From a virus: DNA of 64,000 nt. Within the stretch, counting starts at the first letter, position 1; each line of letters starts with the position of its first letter. The translations under genes were made by a program, and so were the position numbers. The stretch lies in the IMG/VR virus record IMGVR_UViG_3300021378_000010, positions 36,570 to 100,569 of that record. One strand, given 5' to 3'. Shown one piece after another: positions 6,739 through 27,551 of the stretch. The notes below the pieces were generated by a model. It had not been told where the DNA came from. It was given only the letters and a program-made list of their open reading frames with translations, and did not search any database.

Positions 6739-7446
6739 ATGGCAAAGAAACTTCCAAAAATTGATTTACCACTTTTTGAACTAGTGCTTCCATCAACAGG
6801 AAAAAAAATCAAGTATCGCCCCTTTACAGTAAAGGAAGAAAAGATTCTTCTAGTAGCTCAGGAGTCAAATGAACCTGAACAAACCATACTTTCTATAAAG
6901 CAGGTAATTAACAACTGTCTTATCGATATTGACGTTGAAAAGCTTGCGATGTTTGACCTCGAGTATGTAATTCTAGTACTTCGTTCTAAGTCTGTTGATA
7001 ATAATATCAAGTTTGCTATTAAGGATCCAGATACGAATGAAAGTGTAGAACTTGAAATTGATCTCAATGATGTTAAAGTTACAAAGGATGAAGAGCACAG
7101 CAATAAAGTAAAAATCAATGAAGATTACACGCTGTTTCTACGTTATCCAACAATTCAAGAATTTATCAAAATTGCTGGCGCTGATCCTAAAGACTCACTT
7201 ACGAGTTACTTCATCATGATTTCTTGCCTTGACAAGATTGCTTCTGAAAGTGAAGTATATAAGTTTTCAGATTACACTGATGAAGAGATTGATGATTTTA
7301 TGGAAAACTTACAAGGTGATATAATTAAAAAGATCCAAAAGTTTTTTGAAACTATGCCAAAGCTTCGACACGAAATGAAATACAAAAATAGCGAAGGTAA
7401 GGAACAAACCTTTGTGATTGAGGGAATGCGCAGTTTTTTTATCTAG
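6739..7446 (+). CDS. Baseplate hub assembly protein (gp26/gp51 family)
   Basis: LPSTGKKIKYRPFTVKEEKILL...FDLEYVILVLRSKSV...FFETMPKL. Confidence 0.85.
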   Translation: MAKKLPKIDLPLFELVLPSTGKKIKYRPFTVKEEKILLVAQESNEPEQTILSIKQVINNCLIDIDVEKLAMFDLEYVILVLRSKSVDNNIKFAIKDPDTNESVELEIDLNDVKVTKDEEHSNKVKINEDYTLFLRYPTIQEFIKIAGADPKDSLTSYFIMISCLDKIASESEVYKFSDYTDEEIDDFMENLQGDIIKKIQKFFETMPKLRHEMKYKNSEGKEQTFVIEGMRSFFI

Positions 7447-13408: not shown

Positions 13409-14074
13409 TTATTCGCCTTTCTGATATGTGGATTTAGTATCGATGCCTACAAAGTAAGTGACGTCGTCGCTTTTAAACTCGGAAATACCTTTAGCACAGA
13501 GAGTCACGTGGTAGTCACCGGGAAGAAGTTTTAGATTATCTGTTTTGATAATGATGGTAAATTTGTCGTTCGTTTCACCAATCTCTACACCAAATGTATC
13601 AGCAGTTGGATTGGCGCTATCTACCGCACGAAGGAAGCACTTTCCATCTTCGCCAACGAAAGCAATTTCGCTAAACTGAAGAACACCAGCAGCCTTGAGA
13701 ACCGACTGCATGTCTTCCCAGGATACATCGATTTCAACGTCGTTTGAAGGGATTTTGATTTCTTTATTGGGCGGTGTATGAATCATAGATACATCTGCAA
13801 AAACATATTTGGTCTTACGGCGACCTTCAGAAATTGTAAAGAACTTATCATGAAATTCGACGTCAGGGTTTTGATAAAGACCTACGATCGAAAGGAAACG
13901 CGAAAGATCATAAATGCAAGCATCAGATGGAATTTCATCTGGAATATTAGCAATTGCAACAAGAGTCTTTTCAGGCGTAATTGTTTTGAGTACATTGCCT
14001 TCTGACATCAAAATAGATTTATTGATTGAAGAGAAGCTTTTGAGGATGGTAAGAGTACGATCAGAAAATTTCAT
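13409..14074 (-). CDS. gp45: Sliding clamp gp45
   Basis: MKFSDRTLTILKSFSSINKSI...IYDLSRFLS...NLKLLPGDY. Confidence 0.95.
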   Translation of the reverse strand: MKFSDRTLTILKSFSSINKSILMSEGNVLKTITPEKTLVAIANIPDEIPSDACIYDLSRFLSIVGLYQNPDVEFHDKFFTISEGRRKTKYVFADVSMIHTPPNKEIKIPSNDVEIDVSWEDMQSVLKAAGVLQFSEIAFVGEDGKCFLRAVDSANPTADTFGVEIGETNDKFTIIIKTDNLKLLPGDYHVTLCAKGISEFKSDDVTYFVGIDTKSTYQKGE

Positions 14075-14097
14075 AGTGTATAACACTCCTTTTGTGG

Positions 14098-14997
14098 TTA
14101 TCGGTTTATTTTATTCCGCTTTCGCGATTTTGTCAACTGTTTTTTATCTCCATAACTGCTTTTGTTTGAAGATTTATCTGCCGTGGGTGTAACGCCAAGT
14201 GAAGCAATTGCTGCCATGTGACCCTTGAAAATATAAGAACCTACGTGTTGCAGTTCCATCCACGGGCACATCCAAACTTTCATTCCAGCTTTTCGAACAT
14301 TATAACAGAAGAAGTAATCTTCTGAAAGATAACGTCTGGAGTCTGGATCAATTTGGCAATCAAAGTATGCCATAATATCACGCGAACCATCGAAGTTTTG
14401 AGTTCTTACATGATCTGGTTTATACTTATATTCTGGATATGCTTGCTCATATTTTTTGAATGTTTCCCTTGGAATAAGCATGAAACCGGTACCAGCTTCT
14501 CCAACTTCAATTGGTTCATCGATACGGAAAGACTTTACGTTATGCACAGGATTGAAAACAAAATCTGCAGCATAATAATCAAGAAAGAATGGATTTTCGT
14601 CAGCCTTTCCGAGTTCTACTGCTTTCTTGATCTTTTCCCAAGCAATAGTTTTCTTTGGATATGGCGCAGTAACAACGTCAAATTTCTCTGGATCTGAAAT
14701 TTGAATTCCAATCAGGGAAAGTACATCTTTTGCACGAAAACCAATATCAGCATCAATGAATAACAAGTGAGTACATTCTGATCGCAAAAACTCATCTACT
14801 ACATAGTTACGAGCACGCTGAACAAGACTTTCATTGAATAGATAATAGAATTTTACTTCAATACCATATTTTGTGCATAGAATTGCCAGGTCTGTACAAG
14901 ATTTAGCATATAAGCCATGTGCGTTTCCACCATACATAGGCGTACCTACGAAAATAGAACATTTTCTTAGATCTTCGGTATTTACTTCAAGTTTCAT
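14098..14997 (-). CDS. GT-A-fold glycosyltransferase-like protein
   Basis: TPMYGG, NESLVQRARN, LFIDAD (DxD), GTGFMLI, LSEDYFFC, HVG. Confidence 0.65.
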   Translation of the reverse strand: MKLEVNTEDLRKCSIFVGTPMYGGNAHGLYAKSCTDLAILCTKYGIEVKFYYLFNESLVQRARNYVVDEFLRSECTHLLFIDADIGFRAKDVLSLIGIQISDPEKFDVVTAPYPKKTIAWEKIKKAVELGKADENPFFLDYYAADFVFNPVHNVKSFRIDEPIEVGEAGTGFMLIPRETFKKYEQAYPEYKYKPDHVRTQNFDGSRDIMAYFDCQIDPDSRRYLSEDYFFCYNVRKAGMKVWMCPWMELQHVGSYIFKGHMAAIASLGVTPTADKSSNKSSYGDKKQLTKSRKRNKINR

Positions 14998-15024
14998 AAT
15001 ATCTCCTATAAGTAATTATTTTTG

Positions 15025-15234
15025 TCACTGAATTTCTTGACTATTTTTAGTAATTACTTTTACTGTTTCAATGATAATTTCTTCTTGCGTTTCTTCAGCA
15101 TAACCGACTCTTTTGACATCTACTAAAAAGTAATTCGCATATTGTACTGGAGGGTTTATTGTAAGCTCTGGATTGCTATCCATTTCAGAAACAAATTTTT
15201 CAAATTCTTTCGAACCGGCTTTAAATTCTCTCAT
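15025..15234 (-). CDS. Hypothetical protein
   Basis: ORF track. Confidence 0.5.
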   Translation of the reverse strand: MREFKAGSKEFEKFVSEMDSNPELTINPPVQYANYFLVDVKRVGYAEETQEEIIIETVKVITKNSQEIQ

Positions 15235-15242
15235 AATATTTC

Positions 15243-15860
15243 CTATAAGTCGTTTTCAATACGAACAATTTTTTGCATTCTCAAGACATCAGCTAAAACA
15301 TCCCAAGCGCTGTCGTGTTCAACAAATACCTTTGCCCAATGCGCTTCGTCATCTACTGGAATAAAGCCATTCTTTTTTGGAAAATCGAGTTTAGCATCGA
15401 TGTAAGTTCGAATGTCTCGCACTTTCCAATGAGGAAAATATTGCTTGAACATTTCATTTTTTCCTTCAGCAGCAAAAATACGGTCAAGGATTACTGGATC
15501 AAACGTATTTGATCGAGACCACCAGTAATCAATTTTTCCAAAATCGTTAAGATAAGAAACAAGTTGAGTGATGAATTCCTTTACTGTAAGATCGTCTTTT
15601 CTAGGAACAATATTTTTTCGTGCATCGCTTGGCAAAGACTGCCACCACTCTACAGTATCTTTATATACCACCCAGTCGTAATTGTCAACCTGATTTTTCA
15701 CTGAAAGCTTAAATTTTTTCACGAGTGATATATCTTCAGCCGAATAAGGTTTGTTTGAAACAAACTTTTCAGTATCTACTACGATAAATGAAAAGTCAAC
15801 TACTGCGCAATTTTGTGCAGGCTGTCCGAGAGTTTCGCAGTCAATAAAACAATGCTTCAT
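15243..15860 (-). CDS. dexA: DexA-like 3'-5' exonuclease
   Basis: IDCETLG, FDPVIL, RDIRT, HDSAWD (DEDDh). Confidence 0.85.
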   Translation of the reverse strand: MKHCFIDCETLGQPAQNCAVVDFSFIVVDTEKFVSNKPYSAEDISLVKKFKLSVKNQVDNYDWVVYKDTVEWWQSLPSDARKNIVPRKDDLTVKEFITQLVSYLNDFGKIDYWWSRSNTFDPVILDRIFAAEGKNEMFKQYFPHWKVRDIRTYIDAKLDFPKKNGFIPVDDEAHWAKVFVEHDSAWDVLADVLRMQKIVRIENDL

Positions 15861-17083
15861 GTCATAAAATCCGTCAAATCTGTGTTACTTTCTTTTTCTC
15901 TGATTGCACCATTGAGATTGCTTTGAATCATGTATGATGCACGTTCCATTGGTCGTTCTCCATTGATCGTAGCAAGTACTTCAGTCGCCATGTCTTTCGC
16001 AGTTTTGAATGGAACATTTTGACAAATATGGTTTATGTTCTTTCTTTCGTCAAGAAGTTCATAATCTTGAGGAAGACCCATAATCGTCATTGCTTCTCGA
16101 AAGTTGATATAGCGATCTTCGAGATGGTGTGTTACTACGAAAGGCATGTGTACTACAAACGCACCGATGTGATCTACTGGAATTAGCGTTCCGCGCATCA
16201 TTACACCTTTACCACTTGTCAACTTTGCATGTCGACGATCGCACCGATCTGCTTCTCTATCAAGACCTTGCGATCTCATCCACTTACCGACTTGATCATA
16301 ATTAATACCTTGTTCGAGCATCTCTCCTTCAACATTATATGAAGGTCTTGTATGATCTTTTACAGAAGCAGCAAAGTCAACGTGACTCATACCACCTTTA
16401 ATCTCAGTGAGATAAAAACGATAGTATGGATCGTCTTGAGAAGGAATTTTTTTATTGATTGGCTCGACTTGAAAGTTACTCTTTACGCTTTCAAGCAGTT
16501 CACGGATAGTTGGATACTGCGTATTAAACCTGCTAAAAACTGGAACAGAATTATCAAAAGCGTCTCTACGCCAGAAGAAGTAAAATGTTCTACGACGGAT
16601 CTGAGGAGAACCATGAAGAAGAGATTTAGTCACATAAATTGTCATATTGTATCCAGCTGCATCACTAATCTGACGCAACTTGTCTCGCATAAATTTACCG
16701 ACATTAGTAGCAAGTGCAGGTGCGTTTTCACCCCAAAGAACTTTTGGACGAACGTTTTCTAAAACGTGCCGTGTAGTCTTTTCCATCCATTGGTTATTTT
16801 GATTGTGTTCTCCATAACTTTTATGATAAGAACTAAGTCCTGCGCAAGGACATACTGAAGAAACTACGTCTACTGATTCTGTCGTAATTGGCGCATTCTC
16901 GCTATCAAGTACATGATAAGGAATGTCATAGCCGTCCTTTCTGTAATGGTTCAATAGATGCTGTTCGTTTGACGCGAATGCACCATAGCTCATAATATAT
17001 TCTGGCTTTACGCCATACGCTTCATCTGAAGCAAGTAGTTCACCGCCAATAAGCGGCACAATTCCTGCATGTTTTATTGTCAT
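15857..17083 (-). CDS. DNA cytosine-C5 methyltransferase-like protein with atypical motif I
   Basis: CPCAGLS (motif IV), GENAP (VI), PQIRRRTF (VIII), REAMTIMGLP (IX), QNVP (X); motif I is IVPLIGG instead of FxGxG. Confidence 0.75.
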   Translation of the reverse strand: MTIKHAGIVPLIGGELLASDEAYGVKPEYIMSYGAFASNEQHLLNHYRKDGYDIPYHVLDSENAPITTESVDVVSSVCPCAGLSSYHKSYGEHNQNNQWMEKTTRHVLENVRPKVLWGENAPALATNVGKFMRDKLRQISDAAGYNMTIYVTKSLLHGSPQIRRRTFYFFWRRDAFDNSVPVFSRFNTQYPTIRELLESVKSNFQVEPINKKIPSQDDPYYRFYLTEIKGGMSHVDFAASVKDHTRPSYNVEGEMLEQGINYDQVGKWMRSQGLDREADRCDRRHAKLTSGKGVMMRGTLIPVDHIGAFVVHMPFVVTHHLEDRYINFREAMTIMGLPQDYELLDERKNINHICQNVPFKTAKDMATEVLATINGERPMERASYMIQSNLNGAIREKESNTDLTDFMT

Positions 17084-17097
17084 TTTTCATCCTTTAA

Positions 17098-18123
17098 TCA
17101 AGCGAAGAAATTTTCGATGCTCATAATTTGTTTTTCAACACCCGTCCAATGCGGGTAATGTTCTCTTGAAAGGTGTATGGATCTTGGTTTTTCCATATAG
17201 GCAAAATCAAGTTCATCACGATCATTGAGTAGATAATCTGTCCATCGGATTATGCTATATTTATATTCGATGTAATCATTGAAATGATCGCGAACTTTTT
17301 TTCGCTCTGACCACGATCCCCAGAAAGGTTTTCCATCATAATAACCAGTTTTAGGAACTACACGGCTCTCGTTTTCAATTGGAAGCAGTTCATAAATCTT
17401 TGCTCCAAGTTCACGAGCTTGTTCAATATAACGATCTGCAAGAGCTTCGGCATTTTTGATCAAATCACCTTCAAGACGGCAGAGATGATGACGAACATCA
17501 ATATTGCCAAAATAAAACTCAAGTTCTTCAACAGCATCTATGTCAACAAAAGACTTAAGACCCTGGTTGAGTGCTCCATTCAAAGTCTTGAATACAGTAG
17601 AATTGAAAGACCAACCGGGTCTATACATACAGATCGCATGACTGTCACCAATCACAAGTTTTTTTGTAGGATTGACGTGATTTACTTTTACGGCTTCACG
17701 TTCCATCCTACCCCAGTTGTCAATGTCGAGCTCATGCCAAATAGGTTCAATGTAGATATTATTTTTCTTTGCGAGTTCAAATTTACGACGGAGTAGTCGT
17801 TCATACTCAGGAAAGTCGCAATTCAAACTATAAATTGGACCTTTATACTTTGATACCTTTACGACATTTTCTGAATATGGACAGTTTTGAAAGCCACCAA
17901 AAATATTCATTGCCGCTGGCTTTGTTCTAGAAGTTCCGTTATCTGCATGGTACATATAAACAGCATCGTACTCGTTGAGATCTTTGATTCTTCCTTCAAA
18001 ATCAACTTCAGCATCATGACCAAGTTCTTTCAGCTGATTGCAGTAAATAACTGCTGGTGATGTTCTGTGCGAGTATACTAAACTCGTGAGAGTATTAGTT
18101 GGTGAAACGACTGCAATTTTCAT
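17098..18123 (-). CDS. Protein with T4 beta-glucosyltransferase-like N-terminus and SGNH-like C-terminus
   Basis: MKIAVV...NEYD...NIFGG...KYKGPIYSL recalls BGT N-terminus; VIGDSH, FGNID and SIHL recall SGNH blocks. Confidence 0.5.
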   Translation of the reverse strand: MKIAVVSPTNTLTSLVYSHRTSPAVIYCNQLKELGHDAEVDFEGRIKDLNEYDAVYMYHADNGTSRTKPAAMNIFGGFQNCPYSENVVKVSKYKGPIYSLNCDFPEYERLLRRKFELAKKNNIYIEPIWHELDIDNWGRMEREAVKVNHVNPTKKLVIGDSHAICMYRPGWSFNSTVFKTLNGALNQGLKSFVDIDAVEELEFYFGNIDVRHHLCRLEGDLIKNAEALADRYIEQARELGAKIYELLPIENESRVVPKTGYYDGKPFWGSWSERKKVRDHFNDYIEYKYSIIRWTDYLLNDRDELDFAYMEKPRSIHLSREHYPHWTGVEKQIMSIENFFA

Positions 18124-18135
18124 AATATAAATCTC

Positions 18136-19227
18136 CTAGCAAAAAAAGCTGTCAACCGTAGTGCAGCTGAGTCTTGACTCAAGGTCAAGAGCAATTTTAT
18201 CAAAAGCATCAAACGTAAGAGGCAAAATGCGTTTTTCTTGAAGCTTTGGTGTATCTTTGATACCAAGAAAACAGTTGAACTGGCAAAATGTAATTTCTGC
18301 GCCAAAGGTAGTCATATGGCCATTACGTTCAAGGTTTTCTGAGTAAAATTTTCTTGCAGTATCATCAGGAAACTCAAAAAAATCATATTGATGACTACGA
18401 ACTGACATTACGATCTTTTCCATAATATCATTTTTATTTAGCTTAACGTTTGGAAATACGAAAGCCATACCACGATGGGCGCCAGGACCGACCAGACAAT
18501 AGTCATCATCTTCATCAATATTTGGAAGATCTTCGCACCGAGAAAAGTTACAAGGTGGATGGTAAGAAAAATAAGGTCCAATACCGCGATGAGTTTTTAG
18601 CCATTCGCAGACATCGCCAAGAGAGTTTTTAGGATCTTGTACGACATCGCTCATTCCTAGCTTATCAAGTTGATCCATCCAACGAATCATATGCGATAGT
18701 TTGAATTGAACTGTAGGATCATCTTCTTCTTCACGAACAAAGTTTCGAGCCGCGGTCTGAAGCGAAGTCTGAAGCTGAGTAGCACCCCAAACCTTAAGCT
18801 TGCGAATATTATCGTCTAGGTTTCTGTTTACAGTTTGATAATAATCACCTTTGAGTCGATATTCATCGAAGTCAATAATCTTAGAATAATCTGCAGTATC
18901 TGAAGCTACAAGAGTAAGCGTAGGCATGCCAACAAATTTTACCGCCATTGCATTTAGAATTTTGTTACGCATTGAGGTATCTTGACCAAAGACATGATTC
19001 TCTAGCCAAAATACCTCAGCGTGTTTAGAACGGTTTGGATTCCAATACGAAACTTCTTGACGCATCGCAGATCCAAATTCAGGATCAATCTCATATTCTT
19101 CAATCCTGCCGGTTTCACGGAGAGTTTCACGCTTGAAGAAATCCAAGACCCATTTATTGAAATATTTGAATGCATCTGGATCAGCAATAGACTTGAGTTC
19201 GTCTACAGTAAAGATTTCTTTTTTCAT
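18136..19227 (-). CDS. aGPT-PPlase / amino-acid:DNA transferase-like protein (HhH glycosylase fold)
   Basis: RGIGPYFSY, VGPGAHRGM, EITFCQF patterns. Confidence 0.7.
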   Translation of the reverse strand: MKKEIFTVDELKSIADPDAFKYFNKWVLDFFKRETLRETGRIEEYEIDPEFGSAMRQEVSYWNPNRSKHAEVFWLENHVFGQDTSMRNKILNAMAVKFVGMPTLTLVASDTADYSKIIDFDEYRLKGDYYQTVNRNLDDNIRKLKVWGATQLQTSLQTAARNFVREEEDDPTVQFKLSHMIRWMDQLDKLGMSDVVQDPKNSLGDVCEWLKTHRGIGPYFSYHPPCNFSRCEDLPNIDEDDDYCLVGPGAHRGMAFVFPNVKLNKNDIMEKIVMSVRSHQYDFFEFPDDTARKFYSENLERNGHMTTFGAEITFCQFNCFLGIKDTPKLQEKRILPLTFDAFDKIALDLESRLSCTTVDSFFC

Positions 19228-19230
19228 ATT

Positions 19231-19614
19231 TTATTTCTCCGTTAAGTCATGTTGTAGCATGACTATATTTATGCTAGGCATAATCTTCCGAATTTCTTCT
19301 GCTTGAATAGGATCATCTTCAAAGTGAATACCAAAACGATATCCCATTTCTTCAAGATAAAACAGTGTACGACCTTTATGCTGCCCAGATGATTTACGAG
19401 TTTTTTCGTCAAATTTCAGTGGGTTCATGTATACTGTATTATAGATTCCACGATTTGTCAACATATTTTTTGTAACTTCGCCTTCATCATCACGAGAACG
19501 TCCAGTAATGATTACGTCGTCGGGCCCGGGAAAGACGCCCGTAAAGGCGTCTCCCATGTAAATAACTCCATCAATATCAAAAGAATTGATAACTTTGTTA
19601 GGAATATCATTCAT
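19231..19614 (-). CDS. HAD-family phosphatase
   Basis: FDIDGV, ITGRS, K, HFEDD; overlaps the ino1 stop. Confidence 0.8.
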   Translation of the reverse strand: MNDIPNKVINSFDIDGVIYMGDAFTGVFPGPDDVIITGRSRDDEGEVTKNMLTNRGIYNTVYMNPLKFDEKTRKSSGQHKGRTLFYLEEMGYRFGIHFEDDPIQAEEIRKIMPSINIVMLQHDLTEK

Positions 19615-20902
19615 AGTCTGTCTTCCCATCTTGGTATGTGTAAGGAAGATTTTTTGCAATTGGCTTTTCAGCAGCAAGCTGTGGTCGGGTCATTGAAGTA
19701 AGTTCACGGCGAGCAAGCGCATCGCATTCAAACTTTGCATCAGATGAAGAAAGTTGTACAGGCGGCGTCTTCTGCGTATACGCGCTAGGCCCACGAAGAA
19801 TTCCAACAATACCCATTTCAGAAGCTACTCGACAGAAGCGAACGGCAGAAATAACTACACCACTCGAGTTTGGCGAGTCCTGGCAAGAAAGTCGAGCTTG
19901 AAGTGTATAACGAGCACCACCAAAGCCAAACGCTACGATGTCAAGATCTGCAATTTTATTATCAGAACCAACATACGTTCCACCAGGCTTCTGAAGAACT
20001 GTCAACGAAGGACCTGCATAAAGTGTGTCACCAGCATAGCTTACACCACGAACGGTATTTTGACCCTTGAGAACGTTTTCCTTTGAAATATGTTTATTAT
20101 GAAGACGTTCTTTTTCAGCCATATTGATGAAGTCAGTATTTGAAGTAACACCAGAACGAATATGTTCTTTACCCTGAGTAGCACCACCGATGCGATTTGT
20201 TTGAGTATGATATGTTACATGCAGGCCGCCGTCAATCATCGCACCTTGTAGAACTTCAGACAAGCGGGATGCACCCCAAGCAGATCGCATATCAGAACCA
20301 ACAAAAGTAAGACCAGCATCGATAAAGCGCTGCTCAATTTTCTGAGTTTCTTTAGTATCAATAATTGTTGGAATACAGTTTACGAAGTGTACTCCAGCTT
20401 TCAAAGCAACATCGATATAGAAACGAGTTGCTTTTTCAGAACCAACAGGAAGATAATTGACAAGGACTTCAACTCCGGTCTTTTTTACCAATTCAACAAT
20501 ATCATCAAATGATTTTGCAGCTTCAGCACCAGTTCTGAACGAAACTTCTTCAGGATAGTATTCCATCCATTCTGCAACACCATCGAGTGTCGGGCTAGAG
20601 TAAACCATTGCGCCCTTCGTAACTGCGCCTGGAGAATTACCACCAGTTTCAAGAATCTCCGCAACGTGATCCATAGCACAGTTTGGTGAAGCACGAAGAG
20701 CTTCTACAAGAGGCTTGTTAACCTTACGGCGATCTACATCAAATCCAATGACGAACTCGACGTCACCCGAAACATATCCGCCAATTTCTGGATACATCAG
20801 GCCAACTTTATCATTCGGGTTTTCATTATAGTATTGCACACCCTCTACGATAGATTTAGCGCAGTTACCCACACCAATAATACCAATTTTGATCTTTTTC
20901 AT
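19607..20902 (-). CDS. ino1: myo-inositol-1-phosphate synthase family protein
   Basis: IIGVGNCA, NYLPVGSE, FVNCIP, DMRS.WGA, NTDFINM, DSPNSSGV. Confidence 0.92.
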   Translation of the reverse strand: MKKIKIGIIGVGNCAKSIVEGVQYYNENPNDKVGLMYPEIGGYVSGDVEFVIGFDVDRRKVNKPLVEALRASPNCAMDHVAEILETGGNSPGAVTKGAMVYSSPTLDGVAEWMEYYPEEVSFRTGAEAAKSFDDIVELVKKTGVEVLVNYLPVGSEKATRFYIDVALKAGVHFVNCIPTIIDTKETQKIEQRFIDAGLTFVGSDMRSAWGASRLSEVLQGAMIDGGLHVTYHTQTNRIGGATQGKEHIRSGVTSNTDFINMAEKERLHNKHISKENVLKGQNTVRGVSYAGDTLYAGPSLTVLQKPGGTYVGSDNKIADLDIVAFGFGGARYTLQARLSCQDSPNSSGVVISAVRFCRVASEMGIVGILRGPSAYTQKTPPVQLSSSDAKFECDALARRELTSMTRPQLAAEKPIAKNLPYTYQDGKTDYE

Positions 20903-21020
20903 TTGATTTTCCTTTTCTGTTATATCAGTTTAACGACTATATTTGGCCGGAAGGTCCGGGGTAGGTCGAGTGCAATCCAGCACTAAGGTTACCATCAGTC
21001 TAGATGGTGTTGTATTTATA
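20903..21020 (-). promoter_or_regulatory. Late promoter and structured ~105-nt 5' leader of the ino1 sub-operon
   Basis: TATAAATA at 21013-21020; hairpins ACCATC/GATGGT, AGTGC/GCACT, CCGGA/TCCGG. Confidence 0.55.
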
Positions 21021-21027
21021 GCCGAAC

Positions 21028-22113
21028 TCAAGCAAACATATCAAAAATTGTAGTTTCTTTGGTATTTTTTTGTCTGTCAATTGTTTGCTCAAACATATTC
21101 TGCAAAGACTTAATCCAATTTTCTTTTGAGTGCTTTTGTTTTGTGAGTTCAGATATTGCTATACGTTCATTATAATCCAAAGCCAGTAATTTGTCAACAA
21201 CTTCTTTAAATGCAGCAGGACGAATATTTGAACGAACTTTTGCAAGATGTTCTGGTTTTGCTGGAATACATTCAGAAGCGTGAGTATCTTTCGTATCAGT
21301 TGCTAATACTACAGGAACGCCTCGTGCAAGTGCTTCCAAAGCGGTAATACCCCAAGTTTCTGCAGGACATGTCGAAAAATAAACACGAGAACGAGCAAGC
21401 TTTTCCATGACATCTTTATGAGGAAGATTTTCAATTGTGTCCTGTGGATGTTTCCAGTGTTGATTAATATTGTAGTAATGTTTATTGGTAGCATCAACAA
21501 GGTTACTTGTTGTAGTCAGAATCAAACTGTGATAGTTGTTTGAATGAGATAACTTGTGGTTCATATAAGGATTTTTGATTCTATTCATTCGTGCAATAGT
21601 CGTGATGTCATATTCCAGATCTTTGTATACTGGTTCATCACCATTACAAAACGCAGCGTTGATAAATCCGCCATTTAAATTAAGAGGGCATTCGTTGATA
21701 CGCTGCGAAAGCTTATCCATGCCTTGAAATTGCCATGGGCTTACCATTGCAAGAGTACCACCCGTATCAATAAATTCTTTCATTTTTTCAATATGAAGAA
21801 CTTTGCTAATTCCACCGGCAGCGGTATGACTAACCCATAAAATGGGAATGTTAAATACTTTTCGTATATTTCCAATTAGCGTATTACTATCGAAGTTTAC
21901 CATCAGTACATCAGGATCATGCTGAATGATAGCTTGAGAAAGTTTTGTAGTTGTTCTACGCTTTTTGCGATCTTCTTCATTATAATAAAATGGAATCACT
22001 TCGCCAGGAAAATTCTGATAGATCAGTTGAATAAAACGCTCAATGCCACCAGAAACGTGTGGACTGTCAAGATCATGCTCGTCAGTCATAAAAAATGGAA
22101 TTAGTACTTTCAT
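21028..22113 (-). CDS. GT-B (GT4-like) glycosyltransferase
   Basis: SGGIERF near N-terminus; ETWGITALEALARGVPVV (ExxG...E motif). Confidence 0.85.
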   Translation of the reverse strand: MKVLIPFFMTDEHDLDSPHVSGGIERFIQLIYQNFPGEVIPFYYNEEDRKKRRTTTKLSQAIIQHDPDVLMVNFDSNTLIGNIRKVFNIPILWVSHTAAGGISKVLHIEKMKEFIDTGGTLAMVSPWQFQGMDKLSQRINECPLNLNGGFINAAFCNGDEPVYKDLEYDITTIARMNRIKNPYMNHKLSHSNNYHSLILTTTSNLVDATNKHYYNINQHWKHPQDTIENLPHKDVMEKLARSRVYFSTCPAETWGITALEALARGVPVVLATDTKDTHASECIPAKPEHLAKVRSNIRPAAFKEVVDKLLALDYNERIAISELTKQKHSKENWIKSLQNMFEQTIDRQKNTKETTIFDMFA

Positions 22114-22781
22114 ATTTTTACCTCATAATGTAACCGCCAATCTTCATATTCCTCGTCAAGAGTAACCCATTGGCATTTTGTATTTGTATGATTTGCTTCT
22201 TTGTTCCAAACTATCCAGCAATAAGCAATCATGCCACCAATTTGGTCATTCTTATTTATGGGTTCTATATGATCGGCACTAAATTTTACTCTGTCTGACA
22301 TGAATATTATATCACTTGGAGGGTTATTTGTAAACAATTTTTTTCTCTTTTTTCCTTCGAGAAAAGTAATACGAACAAACATTGCAACAAAATCATATTC
22401 ATTGACAGCTTTTTCTGCTATTTTTCGAGGAAGATCTTGATGATATGGCGGATTTGTTACCAGGCCTTTTGCGTCAGAAGGTTTCTGAAGACTCATAAAG
22501 TCTGTATCAACAGTTATTGCGCATAGGCTATTATCATACTCGTGAAGATCATAAGAACGAACATCATAACCGTGACGAAGCAGCTCAATAGATATGTTAC
22601 CACGTCCAGCACAAGGCTCAACGATAACATGAGGTAGATTGACATATTTTTGTAAAACATAAGTTGCGAGTGGTGGTGTTGGATAAAAATCATTTTTTCT
22701 GCGGTTTGTATCTGTTTTTTTTACACCAACGTAAATATCTTTGAGATTATTGGCCATATCTAATATTTTGTTCCTTTTCAC
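22110..22781 (-). CDS. Amino (N6A/N4C) DNA methyltransferase-like protein
   Basis: DFYPTP, VEPCAGRG, TNPPY. Confidence 0.8.
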   Translation of the reverse strand: MKRNKILDMANNLKDIYVGVKKTDTNRRKNDFYPTPPLATYVLQKYVNLPHVIVEPCAGRGNISIELLRHGYDVRSYDLHEYDNSLCAITVDTDFMSLQKPSDAKGLVTNPPYHQDLPRKIAEKAVNEYDFVAMFVRITFLEGKKRKKLFTNNPPSDIIFMSDRVKFSADHIEPINKNDQIGGMIAYCWIVWNKEANHTNTKCQWVTLDEEYEDWRLHYEVKI

Positions 22782-23589
22782 GATCGTCTAGTTTATACTC
22801 AGATCTATAACGAGAGTTAACGCTAATAACTTCTTCAAGTACAGAAAGATATACACCATTGAGTTTTGAAAAGGCAGAAATCGCGGCAGTATCCTTTGGA
22901 AAACAGCTTCCTCCAAAACCTCTTTTTCCGTCGGGTCCTGGAACCTTTGTGTGAGAATGTCCAATACGATCATCTTCTCCTATGGATCTAGAAACAACAT
23001 TATATCGAGCATCGAGTGATTCTGTAAGTTCTTTCCATTGATTAAACCAAACAACTTTCATTGCAAGAAATGAATTGATCCCATATTTTACAAGACTTGC
23101 CTCAACTGGTGTCATGTAATGAAATGGTGCAGGATTGCAGTTTGAATTATACGTGTAAAGATCTTTTACCTTTTCTATGCGATGGATGTCTCCGCCAAGT
23201 ACATGAAAATCTGGTTTCAAAAAATCTTCTAACGCGTTTCTTTCTGTGAGAAATTCTGGGTTGTATACAAAATGATTATTATAACAAATTTCTTCTATTA
23301 CGTCTGGTGTAATAGTCGACTTTACGATGATTGTTGCATCTATATCACTCAGTTGATCCACAACAGTAGTTATGATATTTTTGTTTATCGAACCATCGTC
23401 ATTCATCGGTGTTGGCACGCAAACAAATACAAACTCTGGATTAAAAGAAATCATTTCATCTATATCATGATGGCCCTTATAAGGATCTACAATCATAATG
23501 TCGTTGGTTTTGTTACGAAACCCAAATTCTACAGCGTTTCCAACAAAGCCATAGCCTATAATTGCTATTTTTGTTTTATTCATTTTCAA
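22747..23589 (-). CDS. UDP-glucose/GDP-mannose 6-dehydrogenase (short form)
   Basis: GYGFVG, CVPTP, KST, NPEFL, GFGGSCFPKD. Confidence 0.9.
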   Translation of the reverse strand: MKMNKTKIAIIGYGFVGNAVEFGFRNKTNDIMIVDPYKGHHDIDEMISFNPEFVFVCVPTPMNDDGSINKNIITTVVDQLSDIDATIIVKSTITPDVIEEICYNNHFVYNPEFLTERNALEDFLKPDFHVLGGDIHRIEKVKDLYTYNSNCNPAPFHYMTPVEASLVKYGINSFLAMKVVWFNQWKELTESLDARYNVVSRSIGEDDRIGHSHTKVPGPDGKRGFGGSCFPKDTAAISAFSKLNGVYLSVLEEVISVNSRYRSEYKLDDREKEQNIRYGQ

Positions 23590-24052
23590 AGGCCCAGTGA
23601 CGTTCGTTCATGTAAGTAAGCAATACGCCAGTTTCCTGATACATCGGCTTTGAAAGGTCGTTCCACTGAGTCTGCCACTTCTCAGGAGCATGCTCAGGAT
23701 GCGTGATCACGACTCGTTTGATACCGGATTGGACAACATTCTTTGTACACTCAGCACAGACCGGTAGACCCCAAACATAAATCGTCGCATCCTTGACTGA
23801 TACACCACTGTAGAGCGCATTCATCAATGCGTTCATCTCACCATGAACGATCAATGGATATTTCTGTTCACGATCGTTAAGACGCTCATCTGTATCTTCA
23901 ATACCGCGAGGAAACCCGTTGTAGCCAGTCGCGAGGATGCGACGCTCATCATTTACAATCACTGCTCCGATGCGCGTGCTCGGATCCTTACTCCAGGTCG
24001 AGATCTCACGAGCAAGTTTCATAAAGCGGTTGTCCCACTTGGAGTTAATCAT
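23576..24052 (-). CDS. cd: dCMP deaminase
   Basis: SKDPST, GYNGFPRG, HGEMNA, PVCAEC. Confidence 0.92.
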   Translation of the reverse strand: MINSKWDNRFMKLAREISTWSKDPSTRIGAVIVNDERRILATGYNGFPRGIEDTDERLNDREQKYPLIVHGEMNALMNALYSGVSVKDATIYVWGLPVCAECTKNVVQSGIKRVVITHPEHAPEKWQTQWNDLSKPMYQETGVLLTYMNERHWAFENE

Positions 24053-24707
24053 TCATAAGCTCCTCAATGAACTTGAAGTGGCGCTCGTAGACGTGCAAGT
24101 TAGTCGCAGTCCAAATTAGATCACCAACCGCAACATTGAGATCTGCGGCAAGCATCTTTTGAACATGCATCGCCCAATGTACGTCGTTGTCATATCCAAA
24201 CACAGCATCGTTGGATCGCATTAGGTAGTGACTAATGAGCTTACCATCGCGTATCATAAAGGTGTTTGCGTATGTGCAGACGAAGTCAGACATACCATCT
24301 GCGCAGTAGTCGGTATGCATAGACGGGCGATTGTAGATCATAACGGCACGACGACTGTTCGGGTTCTTCTGCAGCTCAGTCTTTACGTTTTCGTACTGAC
24401 TGCCGTTTTCTTCTGACCAGATCAGATAGCCGTAGTTAGAATTGATCATGCCGTTAGAGTCAGATACTTGTTTCCAGATGGCAGGCGTATCACCAGGAAT
24501 GTCTTCAACGTAACGAGACTGCGACTCATACCACTGGAGTTCGCGTTCGATATATTCATAGTTTGGTTTGCGGATGATCCAATCCTCATCAGCAATAAAC
24601 GACTCACCGATAAGCTCGATGGTCTTAACTCCGGTCTTATCAGTCACGAAATCCTGTTCTTTGTATTTTTGAATGAGCTTAGCTCGAATATCACTTACTG
24701 TTTGCAT
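24045..24707 (-). CDS. gp42: dCMP hydroxymethylase (T4 gp42 family)
   Basis: DKTGVKTIE, INSNYG, DGMSDFVCT, MRSNDAVFGYDND, LHVYERHF closely track T4 gp42 as recalled, including the dCMP-specifying Asp. Confidence 0.92.
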   Translation of the reverse strand: MQTVSDIRAKLIQKYKEQDFVTDKTGVKTIELIGESFIADEDWIIRKPNYEYIERELQWYESQSRYVEDIPGDTPAIWKQVSDSNGMINSNYGYLIWSEENGSQYENVKTELQKNPNSRRAVMIYNRPSMHTDYCADGMSDFVCTYANTFMIRDGKLISHYLMRSNDAVFGYDNDVHWAMHVQKMLAADLNVAVGDLIWTATNLHVYERHFKFIEELMND

Positions 24708-24715
24708 AAATGCTC

Positions 24716-25231
24716 CTATGAATAATTTGATATATTAAGTGATTTGATCTTATTATATAACACGCGATCGTCAATGTCAACAAGAAGTTTGAAGTCTTTC
24801 ATGAGAAATCCAGCAATAATTCTGCCGTCATTAGAATTTCTAATGTTGGAAAACCTGCGCTTACCAAGTGGAGGAGCCTCCCACAACTTAATCGTGGTCT
24901 CGTTTTTCATATCAGACGGATTTTGTACAATAATCCATCGTTCGGCGTTTAGACACTTATCTAATTGGTTTTGCGCTACTCTACCATCTCGAGTTGTGAT
25001 AGGAACAGTGAATGCTGGTTCTACATTGCCCTTTGTAGCATGCGACTTAAAATAATGCCGAATAGTCATGAACTTGACTTCGGTGGTTTTACCATCCACG
25101 AGCATATCCATAGACGCATCAAATGGATCTGTAGCCATTTCTACCACAGACCCAGTTTTTTCAAAATAGTTTTTTACCACATCTTCAGCAAGGTTACCGA
25201 GTGATTGAATTTTTTCTTTAATGTCAAACAT
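24716..25231 (-). CDS. Hypothetical, possible PD-(D/E)xK nuclease
   Basis: GNLAE...DMLVDGKTTEVK. Confidence 0.45.
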   Translation of the reverse strand: MFDIKEKIQSLGNLAEDVVKNYFEKTGSVVEMATDPFDASMDMLVDGKTTEVKFMTIRHYFKSHATKGNVEPAFTVPITTRDGRVAQNQLDKCLNAERWIIVQNPSDMKNETTIKLWEAPPLGKRRFSNIRNSNDGRIIAGFLMKDFKLLVDIDDRVLYNKIKSLNISNYS

Positions 25232-25677
25232 CAGGCTTCATCCGGAAGATATGAATTCAAAGTGTAAACCGTAACAGTGTCTTGATCTGACACAATAATG
25301 TCATCATCATCTGCAACTGTTGGCCTCTGAATTTCTCGGTTAAAGATGTTATGATCGACTAACTGACCAGGAATTTCACCACGGCAGTATGCAACAAAGA
25401 AAGATGCATAGTTGATAAGATCTTTTGCACTATCTTCAAGACTTTCAAAGTTTGGATCGTATCCATCACTCTGCATAGCTTCCATGACAGATTTCATACG
25501 AAGCATTTTTGCATGCATGATGTCATGAATTGTGATCACACCATTAGGGTAATAGTCTGCTTGTTTGACAGTCGAGTTTGGATTTTGATAGTCACGGCTT
25601 TTTCGTAGTTGCAAGTCCATGCATTCTTGTAGGACTTTGGCTGATTCTGGTTGATTGGTCATATTATACCTCTTCAA
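25231..25677 (-). CDS. Nucleotide-modification-associated (DUF1599/Nmad1-like) protein
   Basis: KSRDY...KMLR...ESLEDSAKDLINYA. Confidence 0.7.
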   Translation of the reverse strand: MKRYNMTNQPESAKVLQECMDLQLRKSRDYQNPNSTVKQADYYPNGVITIHDIMHAKMLRMKSVMEAMQSDGYDPNFESLEDSAKDLINYASFFVAYCRGEIPGQLVDHNIFNREIQRPTVADDDDIIVSDQDTVTVYTLNSYLPDEA

Positions 25678-26224
25678 GTTTTTCTAAAAATTCTCGTGCG
25701 TTTGTTTCGATAGCGTACTTCTTATACTCAGAAATTATATACAACAATTCTTCAGATGTCAACCTTTTTCCTTCATCAAGAAGAAGGTGAACTCTGCCAT
25801 TCGAGCCTGCAGAAGCCTCAAGCCATTCAAAAGTATATCCAAATCGTTCTTTAGACTCAGTGTGAATTTTTGTTTCAAGATTTGAAACATTTTCTTCTGC
25901 GCAATACGCGTATCGGATGTAAACTTGAGAACGATCAATACCGTTTTGTCGAATGTAACGACTTACGCCGTGCCCACCAGATGGAATGCGAATGGAATAA
26001 GTACGGTTCAAAATACTTTTTTCAGACTTTCCAGTATATCCAATTTTTTGATGAACTAAATTATCACCGATGTCTTCAATGTCGTCAGCAAAAGCAACTT
26101 GGTATATACCATGTAAGCCATATTGCTCATTCATTTCATCATACAAAGGGTTCTTCTCTGTTGGAATCTTCGAGACTTGAAACCAATCTGTTAGGTGAGT
26201 TACTTGTATTCCTTTGGTTTTCAT
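25664..26224 (-). CDS. GIY-YIG endonuclease-like protein
   Basis: GIYQV...IGYTGKS...R...LE. Confidence 0.6.
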   Translation of the reverse strand: MKTKGIQVTHLTDWFQVSKIPTEKNPLYDEMNEQYGLHGIYQVAFADDIEDIGDNLVHQKIGYTGKSEKSILNRTYSIRIPSGGHGVSRYIRQNGIDRSQVYIRYAYCAEENVSNLETKIHTESKERFGYTFEWLEASAGSNGRVHLLLDEGKRLTSEELLYIISEYKKYAIETNAREFLEKLEEV

Positions 26225-26233
26225 GAAATTTCC

Positions 26234-26536
26234 TTAACGATTGTAAACATAGACGTCAGCAGTAGTAGCATCAGCAAGGCGAATAGCTTGGTGATTATAG
26301 TAAGTACCTGTTCCACCATTTGCACGGCAACGATACTTTACAGCAGCAGGGTTGCCTTTACCAAGCCGGCCTTGCAGCTTTACATATTGAGTAGTGCTAA
26401 ATGCAGAGTTGCCGAGCTTGACGACAGTGCGAAGACCGTCAACGGAAGCTTGATCTTCGGGGTGAACTTTTCCGTCAATCATACGAATTGTAAAACGATA
26501 AGCAGAAGTGCGAGTCATGATGTAGTTCCTTTTCAT
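26234..26536 (-). CDS. Hypothetical early protein
   Basis: Preceded by TTGACA-N8-GAATC promoter (26551-26578, minus strand). Confidence 0.65.
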   Translation of the reverse strand: MKRNYIMTRTSAYRFTIRMIDGKVHPEDQASVDGLRTVVKLGNSAFSTTQYVKLQGRLGKGNPAAVKYRCRANGGTGTYYNHQAIRLADATTADVYVYNR

Positions 26537-26574
26537 TTCTTATAATAAGATATTATATTGATTCGGAACAAATG

Positions 26575-26820
26575 TCAACAGCTATTTTTAGATTTGTTTA
26601 TGATACTAGCTTGTCTCGCAGCCCATGCAGCTTCGAAGCCAACTTCATGTACGATAGCTTCGTGGTTGCCCCAAATTCTTTTGAAGTAGCCTTCGTATGT
26701 CTTCATGACATCAGCTTCACTCCAGCTTTCAGGTATCAGTTGACCCTTTACTATCCAATAGTAACGGTTTGCTTCTTTACGTTGAAATCTTGTCATATAG
26801 TTCTCAGTTCTTTTTGCCAT
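26575..26820 (-). CDS. Hypothetical protein
   Basis: Late promoter TATAAATA at 26832-26839 (minus). Confidence 0.6.
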   Translation of the reverse strand: MAKRTENYMTRFQRKEANRYYWIVKGQLIPESWSEADVMKTYEGYFKRIWGNHEAIVHEVGFEAAWAARQASIINKSKNSC

Positions 26821-26899
26821 TTTTATAATAGTATTTATAGACGAAAAGAAAAAATGTTACCGCTAACTGGCAATGATAGCGGTAACATGAAATATTTTG

Positions 26900-27370
26900 T
26901 TACTTAAAAATTTCTGGAAGTGATCCATGATTGCCATCGTGGCTTGGAGCTTTCCAATCTTCTGGTTTGATTAGATCTGGTAGTCCAAATGGGTTGGGAC
27001 GGCCCGGTTTTACGCCAGGAGTTTTGATTGAGTTTGCTTTATAAACTTGATCCCAAGCTACTTTGGTATCTACGCCAAATACATCAAGAGTGCCAATAGC
27101 GAAAACACATAGATCAATAAGACCATCTACAACTTCTTCAGAATCAACTTTGTCTACGTCACCGATAAAAGCAAAATTTCCTTCATCATTAATTGCAAGT
27201 TCAAGGTCAGATGCTTGTGCAGTTTCGATCAATTCTTCTAAACACATATTCAAACGAAAAGTAAGATACTTTTTCATAAGATCCTTATCGTGTTTGTTTT
27301 TTTCAAACCAGTCGTGCACTCCAAACTTATTGTGCATCATATACATATCATTGATCATATCAGCTGACAT
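26900..27370 (-). CDS. MazG-like all-alpha NTP pyrophosphohydrolase (candidate dCTPase)
   Basis: EELIE...EEVVDGLIDL...AN..K...DLIKPEDW. Confidence 0.75.
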   Translation of the reverse strand: MSADMINDMYMMHNKFGVHDWFEKNKHDKDLMKKYLTFRLNMCLEELIETAQASDLELAINDEGNFAFIGDVDKVDSEEVVDGLIDLCVFAIGTLDVFGVDTKVAWDQVYKANSIKTPGVKPGRPNPFGLPDLIKPEDWKAPSHDGNHGSLPEIFK

Positions 27371-27551
27371 TTTGTAATCCTTCCATTTCGCTTTCAATAG
27401 CTATGATCTCATCCTTAATAGAAAGCTTTAGTCGTTTGTGATTTTTAACAATTTCTTCAGGCGCCTTTTCAGCTTCAAGTGCTTCAATGATGTCATGTTG
27501 CTTTTTATGCTGTGTTTTTAAGAATTTTAAACGGGTTTCTAGTTTTTTCAT
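27360..27551 (-). CDS. DUF465-like small coiled-coil protein
   Basis: LKTQH...KRLKLSIKDEI. Confidence 0.6.
   Translation of the reverse strand: MKKLETRLKFLKTQHKKQHDIIEALEAEKAPEEIVKNHKRLKLSIKDEIIAIESEMEGLQNVS

Follow-up and report, generated by a model that had tools for sequence, protein, structure and literature searches.

The gene cluster described here has its closest known counterparts in phage pathways that decorate 5-hydroxymethylpyrimidines. In the thymidine pathway, a 5-hydroxymethyldeoxyuridine (5-hmdU) DNA kinase acts with an amino-acid:DNA transferase (AADT, or aGPT-Pplase2; PaMx11 gp46, structure 8Z2N; M6 gp51; ViI gp247) on DNA that has already been replicated; a cysteine of the transferase attacks C6 of the base, and the 5-phosphate leaves via the exocyclic methylene (PMC8989533; PMC11472151). 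The co-substrate is an amino acid or a polyamine, and the ViI enzyme, which uses the hydroxyl of serine, sets a precedent for an oxygen nucleophile (PMC8989533). We report on a locus that may carry such chemistry over to cytosine. It lies between gp43 and gp45, the genes for the DNA polymerase and the sliding clamp, in a window of 64,000 nucleotides that is part of one 100.6-kb viral contig (IMGVR_UViG_3300021378_000010; CheckV completeness 48%). At its core is a cassette of four genes: ino1, of the myo-inositol-phosphate synthase (MIPS) family; a capless HAD phosphatase; p363, a protein that resembles the AADTs; and p341, in which a domain like that of the T4 beta-glucosyltransferase (BGT) is joined to an SGNH domain. 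We lean, if only a little, toward the reading that the locus places an ether-linked inositol on 5-hydroxymethylcytosine (hmC), and that the enzymes responsible are tethered to the clamp and act on replicated DNA.

Like the thymidine pathway, the one proposed here would decorate a 5-hydroxymethylpyrimidine after replication, with genes that cluster with a hydroxymethylase; p363 is proposed to be a helix-hairpin-helix, glycosylase-like enzyme that uses a Glu-x3-Cys pair to attack C6 and works through the exocyclic methylene. It would differ in its base, which is hmC rather than 5-hydroxymethyluracil (hmU), and in its presumed co-substrate, a cyclitol made by two phage genes. Further, p363 matches the model of the HMUDK helical domain and not the ADDT model, a BGT-like/SGNH protein is found in place of the P-loop kinase, and enzymes of this locus end in clamp-binding tails, unlike those of the thymidine pathway.

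The glucosylation of hmC in T4 likewise begins before replication, when gp42 makes 5-hydroxymethyl-dCMP (hmdCMP) and a pyrophosphatase, gp56, removes dCTP, and there too hmC is decorated in the polymer, by alpha- and beta-glucosyltransferases. The N-terminal domain of p341 may resemble that of BGT, and relatives of this phage carry a T4-type alpha-glucosyltransferase (AGT) at the same genomic position. In contrast to T4, the conserved core of this locus is without a UDP-glucose-binding domain, the donor would not be a nucleotide sugar, and the product is expected to be an ether, not a glycoside.

Two other pathways share parts with this cluster. The arabinosyl-5-hydroxycytosine pathway of RB69, DLP3, and HY126 (PMC13326640) is also a T4-like cluster with a thymidylate synthase (TS) homologue, a HAD protein resembling the polynucleotide kinase (PNK) phosphatase, and GT4-type DNA glycosyltransferases; it puts a sugar-type group on C5 of cytosine, as we propose here, from a donor that the phage makes out of a host sugar phosphate. 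Its TS homologue, however, is a flavin-dependent 5-hydroxylase with the change D169N, whereas Asp169 is kept in ours, and its sugar is UDP-activated, whereas neither a nucleotidyltransferase nor a sugar kinase is found here. In phage TET/5-methylcytosine (5mC) hypermodification (PMC8256090; bioRxiv 10.1101/2023.12.21.572611), a protein of the C5-methyltransferase family is linked to hmC-decorating transferases, as it is here, and the hexuronic-acid adducts reported there bear on a possible side branch formed by a dehydrogenase and a GT-B glycosyltransferase of this locus. There the methyltransferase makes 5mC for TET; here hmC would be supplied by gp42 and TET is absent, so that a normal methyltransferase role makes little sense. 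An earlier account of this DNA, made from its letters and open reading frames (ORFs) and called here the sequence-only reading, knew of no inositol-modified DNA base. Our literature searches on inositol with hmC, AADT, 7-deazaguanine, and phage MIPS likewise found none, and no paper on the role of phage MIPS genes.

Results

Four Genes Inherited Together

The phage is uncultured, marine, and T4-like. A search of sequencing runs met its sequence in metagenomes only, from seawater and other aquatic sources, and a megablast comparison of the whole region with cultured phages gave no match. The four core genes are as follows.

19607..20902, minus strand: ino1, myo-inositol-phosphate synthase family (E 5e-51 to M. 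tuberculosis Ino1, 1GR0)
19231..19614, minus strand: capless HAD phosphatase, PNK-phosphatase type (phrog_415, 2e-6)
18136..19227, minus strand: p363, 363 aa, helix-hairpin-helix, candidate DNA base transferase of the AADT/HMUDK-helical type (Pfam HMUDK_hel, 1e-8)
17098..18123, minus strand: p341, 341 aa, T4 BGT-like N-terminal domain and SGNH domain (AlphaFold2 [AF2] pLDDT 80; tail …MSIENFFA)

The sequence-only reading had named all four products much as we do and had placed their genes in a tightly coupled sub-operon. Both points hold: from ino1 through an exonuclease gene downstream, no intergenic gap or overlap exceeds 14 nt, and the assignments survive closer inspection. The match of ino1 to the M. 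tuberculosis enzyme spans residues 3-392 (full-length), and about 150 phage homologues share the motifs NxDF, K..SK, DSPNS, and YLPVGS. All four HAD motifs (DxDGV, TGR, K, and EDD) are conserved in about 150 homologues of the phosphatase.

A scan of IMG/VR for ino1 returned 164 relatives, from which 80 loci were kept. The order gp42, dCMP deaminase, ino1, HAD, p363, p341, C5-methyltransferase (C5-MTase)-like gene recurs among them at ino1 identities of 68-94%. A p363 profile matches 67 of 82 ino1 loci and a p341 profile 57 of the 82; most loci without a match are other clusters or short or cut contigs. The reverse scan, made with a p363 alignment, found 212 relatives, and nearly all p363 loci with enough flanking sequence also have ino1, HAD, and p341. 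The association extends to divergent lineages with all four genes, where identity falls to 27-36% for p363, to 45-48% for ino1, and to 27% for the polymerase; these lineages arrange the cassette as p341, ino1, HAD, one gene, p363, or have its members scattered (in a 360-kb genome). Viral contigs that have inherited ino1, HAD, p363, and p341 together number well over 100, with several gene orders among them. Because these genes are found together across diverged lineages and gene orders, we take the four to be the core of the cassette. The linkage of ino1 to modification genes, from which the sequence-only reading had argued, is thus a property of relatives as well.

The phosphatase is the obligate partner of ino1: the two occur in exactly the same 19 cultured-phage records. 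The pair is also met beside other base-modification genes. Caulobacter phage Cr30 has a strong ADDT (1e-52) two genes upstream of ino1; Ralstonia phage RP13 has ino1-HAD amid genes for a standalone HMUDK_hel protein (3e-47), an HMUD2 kinase, and a GT4; and one further marine lineage has the order TET/JBP, FkbM methyltransferase, ADDT, ino1, HAD, P-loop kinase. Two side observations concern these neighborhoods. A few kilobases from ADDT-ino1, Cr30 (L083, 2733-3533) encodes an Acb3-type inhibitor of CBASS (cyclic-oligonucleotide-based antiphage signaling system; Pfam 2e-68) and an RlaP-like nucleotidyltransferase, and on one marine contig (L038, 8557-9828), where ino1-HAD precede QueC, a gene for IS605 OrfB/TnpB (Cas12f-like) adjoins ino1.

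p363 and p341

The AF2 model of p363 (pLDDT 90) appears to have a helix-hairpin-helix, glycosylase-like fold. The protein matches PF18723, the helical domain of 5-hmdU DNA kinase, over residues 176-317 (35.4 bits against a cut-off of 25), and aligns full-length with the standalone HMUDK-helical protein of RP13 (ORF120). Its best Foldseek match is the glycine:DNA transferase PaMx11 gp46/PUGT (8Z2N), at an E of only 0.06; VIA aligns the two over 238 residues with a Z of 9.1 and a root-mean-square deviation (rmsd) of 4.4, tied with DUF2419 and OGG enzymes. None of 15 diverse homologues departs from Glu311-x3-Cys315, nor does either divergent subtype or RP13 ORF120, and the spacing is that of the catalytic residues of PUGT, Glu243 and Cys247. 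A p363 profile found no match among the sequences of solved structures, and no longer, fused form of p363 came out of a word-based search, which is weak evidence. The possibility that p363 is itself a kinase is ruled out, as the sequence has no P-loop motif, no kinase family is matched, and the similarity is to the helical domain only. The AADT-like assignment made by the sequence-only reading therefore stands as one of type: we suggest that p363 works like an AADT and file it as AADT-like rather than as a member, because the ADDT Pfam model is not matched. The same reading could identify no hydroxymethylpyrimidine DNA kinase. Nor did we find one of the Ploopntkinase3/HMUD2 kind in the 100.6-kb contig (48% complete) or in five related genomes, two of them complete (~360 kb); other kinase families were not searched.

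Residues 151-331 of p341 have an SGNH fold, with VIA Z of 9-11 to TesA, PatB, and sugar O-acetylesterases. The chains that reach a Z of at least 8 number 91, and every one of the matches listed is of the SGNH/GDSL fold; TesA residues 1-172 align to 152-331 of the model (Z 10.2, rmsd 3.2), and by offset Ser161 falls on TesA Ser10. The blocks GDSH (159-162), GNID (206-209), and SxH (His317) are invariant in 17 homologues. In block V there is no Asp three residues before the His (P-R-S-I-H, not DxxH). For the N-terminal domain, T4 BGT is the best structural match (1QKJ; Foldseek 6.6e-5, TM only 0.29), and the Pfam T4-Gluco-transf match (E 0.02) is under the cut-off; the Foldseek matches of p341 also include GDSL esterases. 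In p341 the UDP-glucose-binding C-terminal domain of T4 BGT is replaced by the SGNH domain. The BGT-like/SGNH description given to this protein earlier is upheld, more firmly for its SGNH part.

Through PHROGs we found a 795-aa protein of Aeromonas phage 31 (AY962392.1), ORF233c, in which a p341-like protein is fused to a p363-like one. The Aeromonas phages with this fusion are without ino1; in phage 31 (L086, 4277-8257) a YidK-like Na+/solute symporter gene lies directly upstream of the fusion gene, in place of ino1-HAD. Because the symporter takes the place of ino1-HAD there, the arrangement fits a free small molecule as co-substrate, imported in Aeromonas phage 31 and synthesized here. These are cultured T4-like phages and make a practical test case. 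In one further locus (L225, 2537-5977), four ORFs without a Pfam match (148, 383, 339, and 300 aa) replace ino1, HAD, and p363 between the dCMP deaminase gene and a p341-like gene, and may serve the same machinery as another source of a small molecule. The cultured marine Tenacibaculum phage PTm1 has a p341-like protein (BFVD A0A5S9BYZ5; Foldseek 4.5e-15, TM 0.65), and our search of cultured phages for ino1 gave no match from it.

Clamp-Type Tails

The replication genes that flank the cluster provide a reference for a short C-terminal sequence found within it.

27562..30099, minus strand: gp43, family-B DNA polymerase (Pfam DNA_pol_B, 7e-32), whose tail, …NTIEDFFA, is the clamp-binding reference for this phage
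13409..14086, minus strand: gp45, sliding clamp (Pfam gp45-slide_C, 3e-14)

In T4, gp45 binds gp43, gp55, and gp33 through similar C-termini, acidic and hydrophobic, that can stand in for one another (PMC2988020). Next to …TIEDFFA of gp43, the present contig has …SIENFFA in p341, …TVDSFFC (…TTVDSFFC) in p363, …TIFDMFA in the GT-B protein, and …DLTDFMT in the C5-MTase-like protein. A tail of the gp43 type is thus found in 5 of the 123 ORFs of the contig against 0.13 expected, and no other ORF fits; ino1, HAD, gp42, the dehydrogenase-like gene, and a 299-aa protein (p299) adjoining gp45 are without it. Such tails are kept in dozens of diverged contigs, beside gp43 tails such as SLEDFFG, and two lineages have another tail on p341 and p363, alike in both proteins. 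Because they share a polymerase-type, gp45-binding tail, we suggest that p363, p341, the C5-MTase-like protein, and GT-B are DNA-directed and act on newly replicated DNA, with gp45 as their presumed docking partner.

hmC as the Probable Starting Base

The genes that could supply hmC lie upstream of the cassette.

24045..24707, minus strand: dCMP hydroxymethylase, gp42 type (E 1e-72 to T4 gp42, 1B49, residues 2-215)
23576..24052, minus strand: dCMP deaminase (Pfam dCMP_cyt_deam_1, 3e-21; phrog_174, 7.5e-45)
26900..27397, minus strand: MazG-like NTP pyrophosphohydrolase (Pfam PRA-PH, 4e-6; phrog_671, 5e-17)
25231..25677, minus strand: Nmad1-like protein, a weak assignment (Pfam DUF1599/Nmad1, E 0.05 alone; phrog_18404, 4e-13)

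Some homologues called gp42 make 5-hydroxy-dCMP rather than hmdCMP, and they are marked by Asn at the position of ThyA D169 (PMC13326640, 2026). The same paper describes E. coli plasmid DNA that carries hmC, made with T4 gp42 and a dNMP kinase, an expression system that could host the cassette. The hydroxymethylase of this locus keeps Asp there, in the stretch R-S-N-D; in MRSNDAVFGYDND the last Asp aligns with ThyA N177, the position of cytosine specificity; and in the catalytic-Cys motif, SDFVCT, an acidic residue, Asp, stands three residues before the Cys, at the position of ThyA L143. This signature (Asp169, Asp177) rules out both a dUMP hydroxymethylase and a 5-hydroxy-dCMP synthase. Because the match to gp42 is strong (1e-72), both Asp169 and Asp177 are present, and an acidic residue precedes the catalytic Cys, hmC is supported, on sequence grounds, as the starting base for further modification. 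The four further cassette genomes that we checked, two complete (~360 kb) and two partial, each have a second, divergent TS homologue with Asp169 and Asp177. The co-occurrence of ino1, an AADT-type gene, and gp42 proposed by the sequence-only reading is therefore borne out, by the cassette in more than 100 contigs and by a cytosine-type hydroxymethylase in all four of these genomes.

That reading's hydroxymethylase, deaminase, and MazG-like assignments are all upheld by the matches listed. For the Nmad1-like protein the gene is real and the identity is weak. Relatives keep the MazG-like gene upstream of gp42 and the Nmad1-like gene beside it, and the MazG-like protein is likely to be a dCTPase that excludes dCTP.

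The region upstream of ino1 includes one further feature.

21013..21020, minus strand: T4 late-promoter-type motif, TATAAATA, inside the 125-nt gap upstream of ino1

The T4 late-promoter-type pattern occurs 16 times in the window, where 4.8 occurrences are expected. Sigma-70 consensus promoters without a mismatch (12/12) stand, also on the minus strand, at 21197-21169 (before ino1), 24780-24752 (gp42), and 25762-25734 (Nmad1-like). Since a late-type motif and sigma-70 promoters both lie upstream, the modification genes may be expressed early as well as late.

Other Genes between gp43 and gp45

All genes from gp43 to gp45 are on the minus strand. In the order of transcription they are the MazG-like gene, four small ORFs without assignment plus the weak Nmad1 match, the gp42-type gene, dCMP deaminase, a 280-aa dehydrogenase-like gene, an N6-adenine methyltransferase, a GT4, ino1, HAD, p363, p341, the C5-MTase-like gene, a 3'-5' exonuclease, a 69-aa ORF, and p299. 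Those outside the inositol unit and the supply of hmC are these.

15857..17083, minus strand: C5-cytosine-methyltransferase-like protein (Pfam DNA_methylase, PF00145, 2e-16; 60.5 bits against a cut-off of 22; clamp-type tail …TDLTDFMT)
22747..23589, minus strand: truncated NDP-sugar dehydrogenase-like protein, 280 aa (Pfam UDPG_MGDP_dh, 4e-17; TIGR03026, 6e-43)
21028..22113, minus strand: GT4/GT-B glycosyltransferase (Pfam Glycos_transf_1, 4e-7; clamp-type tail …TTIFDMFA)
22110..22781, minus strand: N6-adenine DNA methyltransferase, 223 aa, absent from the earlier gene list (phrog_799, 3e-41; FYPTPP, EPCAGRG, NPPY)
15243..15860, minus strand: 3'-5' exonuclease, Rv2179c/DexA-like (Pfam Rv2179c-like, 1e-17; phrog_255, 2e-30)
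14098..14997, minus strand: p299, a conserved backbone gene adjoining gp45 (phrog_1574, 4e-58; GT2/GT21/Anp1, E 0.03-0.09)

The C5-MTase-like protein is correctly so called: besides the Pfam match, PCAGLS, WGENAP, QxRxR, and CQNV are invariant in the alignment, and motifs IV, VI, and VIII are intact. Conservation does not extend to its S-adenosylmethionine (SAM) pocket. In place of FxGxG, motif I has PLIGG; the acidic residues of motifs II and III, Glu28 and Asp72, change among homologues to Lys and to Thr or Asn, respectively; and TIGR00675 scores 35 against a cut-off of 100. The family numbers at least 549 relatives in our scan. Where enough upstream sequence is available, gp42 is present in 49 of 49 loci and ino1, HAD, and p363 in only 7. 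Directly upstream stands p341 in 14 loci, a T4-type DNA AGT (1e-73) in three sampled loci, a TET-associated glycosyltransferase (TAGT) in one, and a gene without assignment beside GT-B in one; a glycosyltransferase-type gene followed by a C5-MTase-like gene thus looks like a conserved pair. Many marine T4-like contigs without inositol genes have AGT or TAGT at this place (L206, L217, and L224, about 5770-7004; L179, 6171-7004). The sequence-only reading had counted the gene as part of the inositol sub-operon, and so far as position goes this was right; we read it as a separate, general hmC-linked function and a general partner of gp42. Reportedly, in the work of Liutkeviciute and colleagues, C5-methyltransferases can catalyze exchange at the hydroxymethyl group of hmC, and for that reason the C5-MTase-like protein could, by analogy, be a second transferase.

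The dehydrogenase-like protein had been taken for a UDP-glucose dehydrogenase. The NAD and central domains (Pfam) are there, with GxGxxG and with the catalytic Cys in GGSCFPKD. The UDP-binding C-terminal domain is missing: the protein ends about 45 residues past the catalytic Cys, and the TIGR03026 match covers 77-298 of 413. Its length, 277-280 aa, is kept across lineages at 44-49% identity (L016, L101, L121, L179-L190), and in the nine loci shown the gene recurs near the C5-MTase-like gene without ino1. By this distribution it is a general partner of gp42 and not of the inositol genes. In L179 it adjoins an SDR epimerase/dehydratase. Its distribution across relatives, and that of the C5-MTase-like gene, rules out both as members of the inositol unit. 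Phage glycosyltransferases are known to give cytosines modified with hexuronic acid (bioRxiv 10.1101/2023.12.21.572611), and a uronic-acid branch through the dehydrogenase-like protein, lacking its UDP-binding domain, and GT-B is possible. The glucuronate decoration foreseen by the sequence-only reading thus survives as a branch that is separate from the inositol unit and weaker.

The GT-B protein, whose earlier assignment the Pfam match sustains, is probably a DNA glycosyltransferase, and its gene is found mainly in the closest relatives. So is that of the N6-adenine methyltransferase, which accompanies gp42 in several relatives; because this gene is in the cluster, the phage DNA is probably adenine-methylated as well. 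The methyltransferase motifs of the 223-aa protein and its methyltransferase-like Atlas neighbors rule it out as a GT-A glycosyltransferase. The GT-A call of the sequence-only reading concerned p299; that gene exists, and its glycosyltransferase identity is weak (matches at E about 0.03-0.09). p299 is present in most relatives with or without ino1, hence is not cassette-specific. The start of the exonuclease gene overlaps the stop of the C5-MTase-like gene by 4 nt, and the same order, C5-MTase-like then DexA/Rv2179c-like exonuclease, is found again in most relatives.

Discussion

Gene identities, folds, conserved catalytic residues, co-inheritance, and tails are matters of observation. In the pathway that we infer, and this extends to the substrate, the linkage, the order of the steps, and the role of p341, hmC would replace cytosine before replication through the MazG-like protein, which would remove dCTP, and the gp42-type enzyme. 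The four-gene cassette would then decorate hmC in the DNA polymer with a cyclitol. The ino1 product would cyclize glucose-6-phosphate to inositol phosphate, and the capless HAD protein would remove the phosphate or hand it on. p363 would flip hmC out, and its Cys315 would attack C6 with the help of Glu311, as in the amino-acid:DNA transferases; the 5-substituent would leave, and a hydroxyl of inositol would add to the exocyclic methylene, giving the ether 5-(inosityloxymethyl)cytosine. We suspect that p341 stands in for the 5-hmdU DNA kinase of the thymidine pathways, its BGT-like domain binding DNA and its SGNH domain acting as an acyl-transferase or esterase. Most likely it would convert the hydroxymethyl group to an ester, a better leaving group; less likely, it would acylate the product. 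Alternatively, activation could come from HAD, if the enzyme moved the phosphate of inositol phosphate onto hmC. The tailed enzymes would work on freshly replicated DNA, held there by gp45. In this phage and its closest relatives only, GT-B would add a further sugar, which the truncated dehydrogenase may supply.

The central proposal of the sequence-only reading, that hmC receives an inositol-type group from an AADT-like enzyme and without the usual kinase, gains support from comparative genomics; the group and its linkage are predictions. The full scheme, in which 5-(inosityloxymethyl)cytosine is made with no DNA kinase by way of a p341-dependent ester or phosphate transfer by HAD, displacement by inositol, and enzymes riding on the clamp, and in which the same ino1-HAD pair feeds decorations of hmU and 7-deazaguanine in other phages, is tentative, and we would sooner expect some part of it to fail than the whole to hold.

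Several observations count against the pathway. For the transfer step the contig encodes no recognized energy source, activated donor, kinase, or nucleotidyltransferase. Plain exchange of an alcohol for water would be unfavorable in that situation, and the role given to p341 is for this reason a guess. p363 does not match PF18724 (ADDT) even at an E of 10, hhalign comparison of its profile with Cr30 ADDT gave no match (E 0.27), and a Z of about 9 to PUGT is modest for a helical protein. p341 also adjoins the C5-MTase-like gene in loci without ino1 or p363. The phage is known from metagenomes, and the pathway, so far, from its genes. The points that remain concern ino1 and its surroundings, and each has a place in one of the alternatives below.

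The same cassette and the same mechanism could serve an ino1-family enzyme that makes a different carbocyclic sugar phosphate, from another substrate or as another cyclitol, and it would then be this compound that is put on hmC. The score of ino1 against TIGR03450 (3.5e-61) is 207 bits, far below the equivalog cut-off of 638, the second-best solved relative (6K96, 2e-26) is Ari2, a cyclitol-phosphate synthase whose product is a five-membered cyclitol, and nearly all phage homologues have Arg where the M. tuberculosis enzyme has the Lys of its D-I-K-S stretch. The full-length match, however, is clearly best to M. tuberculosis Ino1 (5e-51 versus 2e-26), and NxDF, K..SK, and DSPNS are conserved; we consider another cyclitol unlikely.

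We give the same low standing to a second alternative, in which p363 and p341 put some other small molecule on hmC, an amino acid, polyamine, or acyl group, and ino1-HAD is an auxiliary metabolic pair that makes an osmolyte or lipid head-group, or drains sugar phosphate, in a plastic region of the genome. T4-like phages do collect accessory genes between core replication genes, and the Aeromonas fusion dispenses with ino1. Moreover, ino1-HAD lie inside 7-deazaguanine clusters in Moby-type Stenotrophomonas phages and in marine contigs of the L038 type. ADDT was sought in the Moby, L038, L019, L022, and L032 records and not found, and in the Moby-type phages and the L038-type lineage no AADT-type gene was found anywhere in the record; the pair is thus independent of any single transferase family. 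Against an auxiliary role stand the almost one-to-one co-inheritance of the four genes across very distant lineages and different gene orders, their translational coupling, and the fact that ino1-HAD adjoin base-modification genes in every examined context whose neighbors can be named.

It is less probable still that the locus carries out ordinary sugar decoration, with GT-B and perhaps p341 glycosylating hmC from host nucleotide sugars and the cyclitol never reaching DNA. Such an explanation would suit the clamp tail of the GT4 protein, the dehydrogenase-like gene, the BGT-like N-terminal domain of p341, the relatives with a T4-type AGT or TAGT at the equivalent position, and the hexuronic-acid cytosines that phage glycosyltransferases are known to make (bioRxiv 10.1101/2023.12.21.572611). 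It leaves p363 and the linkage of ino1-HAD unexplained, and the distribution is wrong for it, since the cassette is widespread and GT-B largely confined to the closest relatives; in p341, the very domain that would bind a UDP-sugar has given way to an SGNH domain with intact catalytic blocks. A use of the cyclitol away from DNA, whether on virion proteins, on the host envelope, in signaling, or to block defenses, with the tailed enzymes doing unrelated work on DNA, can be nearly discounted: no finding ties the ino1 product to DNA directly, but ino1-HAD keep no other conserved partners than DNA-directed, clamp-tailed enzymes, and the genes are inherited nearly one-to-one, abut base-modification genes, and are translationally coupled.

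If ether-linked inositol is indeed carried on hmC, it would be the first DNA base with a cyclitol, and for the first time AADT-type chemistry would have cytosine, not thymine, as its base, with activation of a hydroxymethylpyrimidine by something other than a known kinase. It would also be a case of DNA-modifying enzymes recruited to a phage sliding clamp, to be compared with the recruitment of DNMT1 to PCNA. Because ether-linked inositol-hmC and glucosyl-hmC have the same mass, surveys of phage DNA by mass alone could already have misread the former. Among cultured phages, neighboring systems are carried by Cr30, RP13, and the Moby-type phages (ino1-HAD) and by Aeromonas phages 31 and 44RR2.8t (the p341-p363 fusion). 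Marine and freshwater viromes are rich in the cassette, and for that reason it may shape which restriction, CRISPR, and glycosylase defenses work in these waters.

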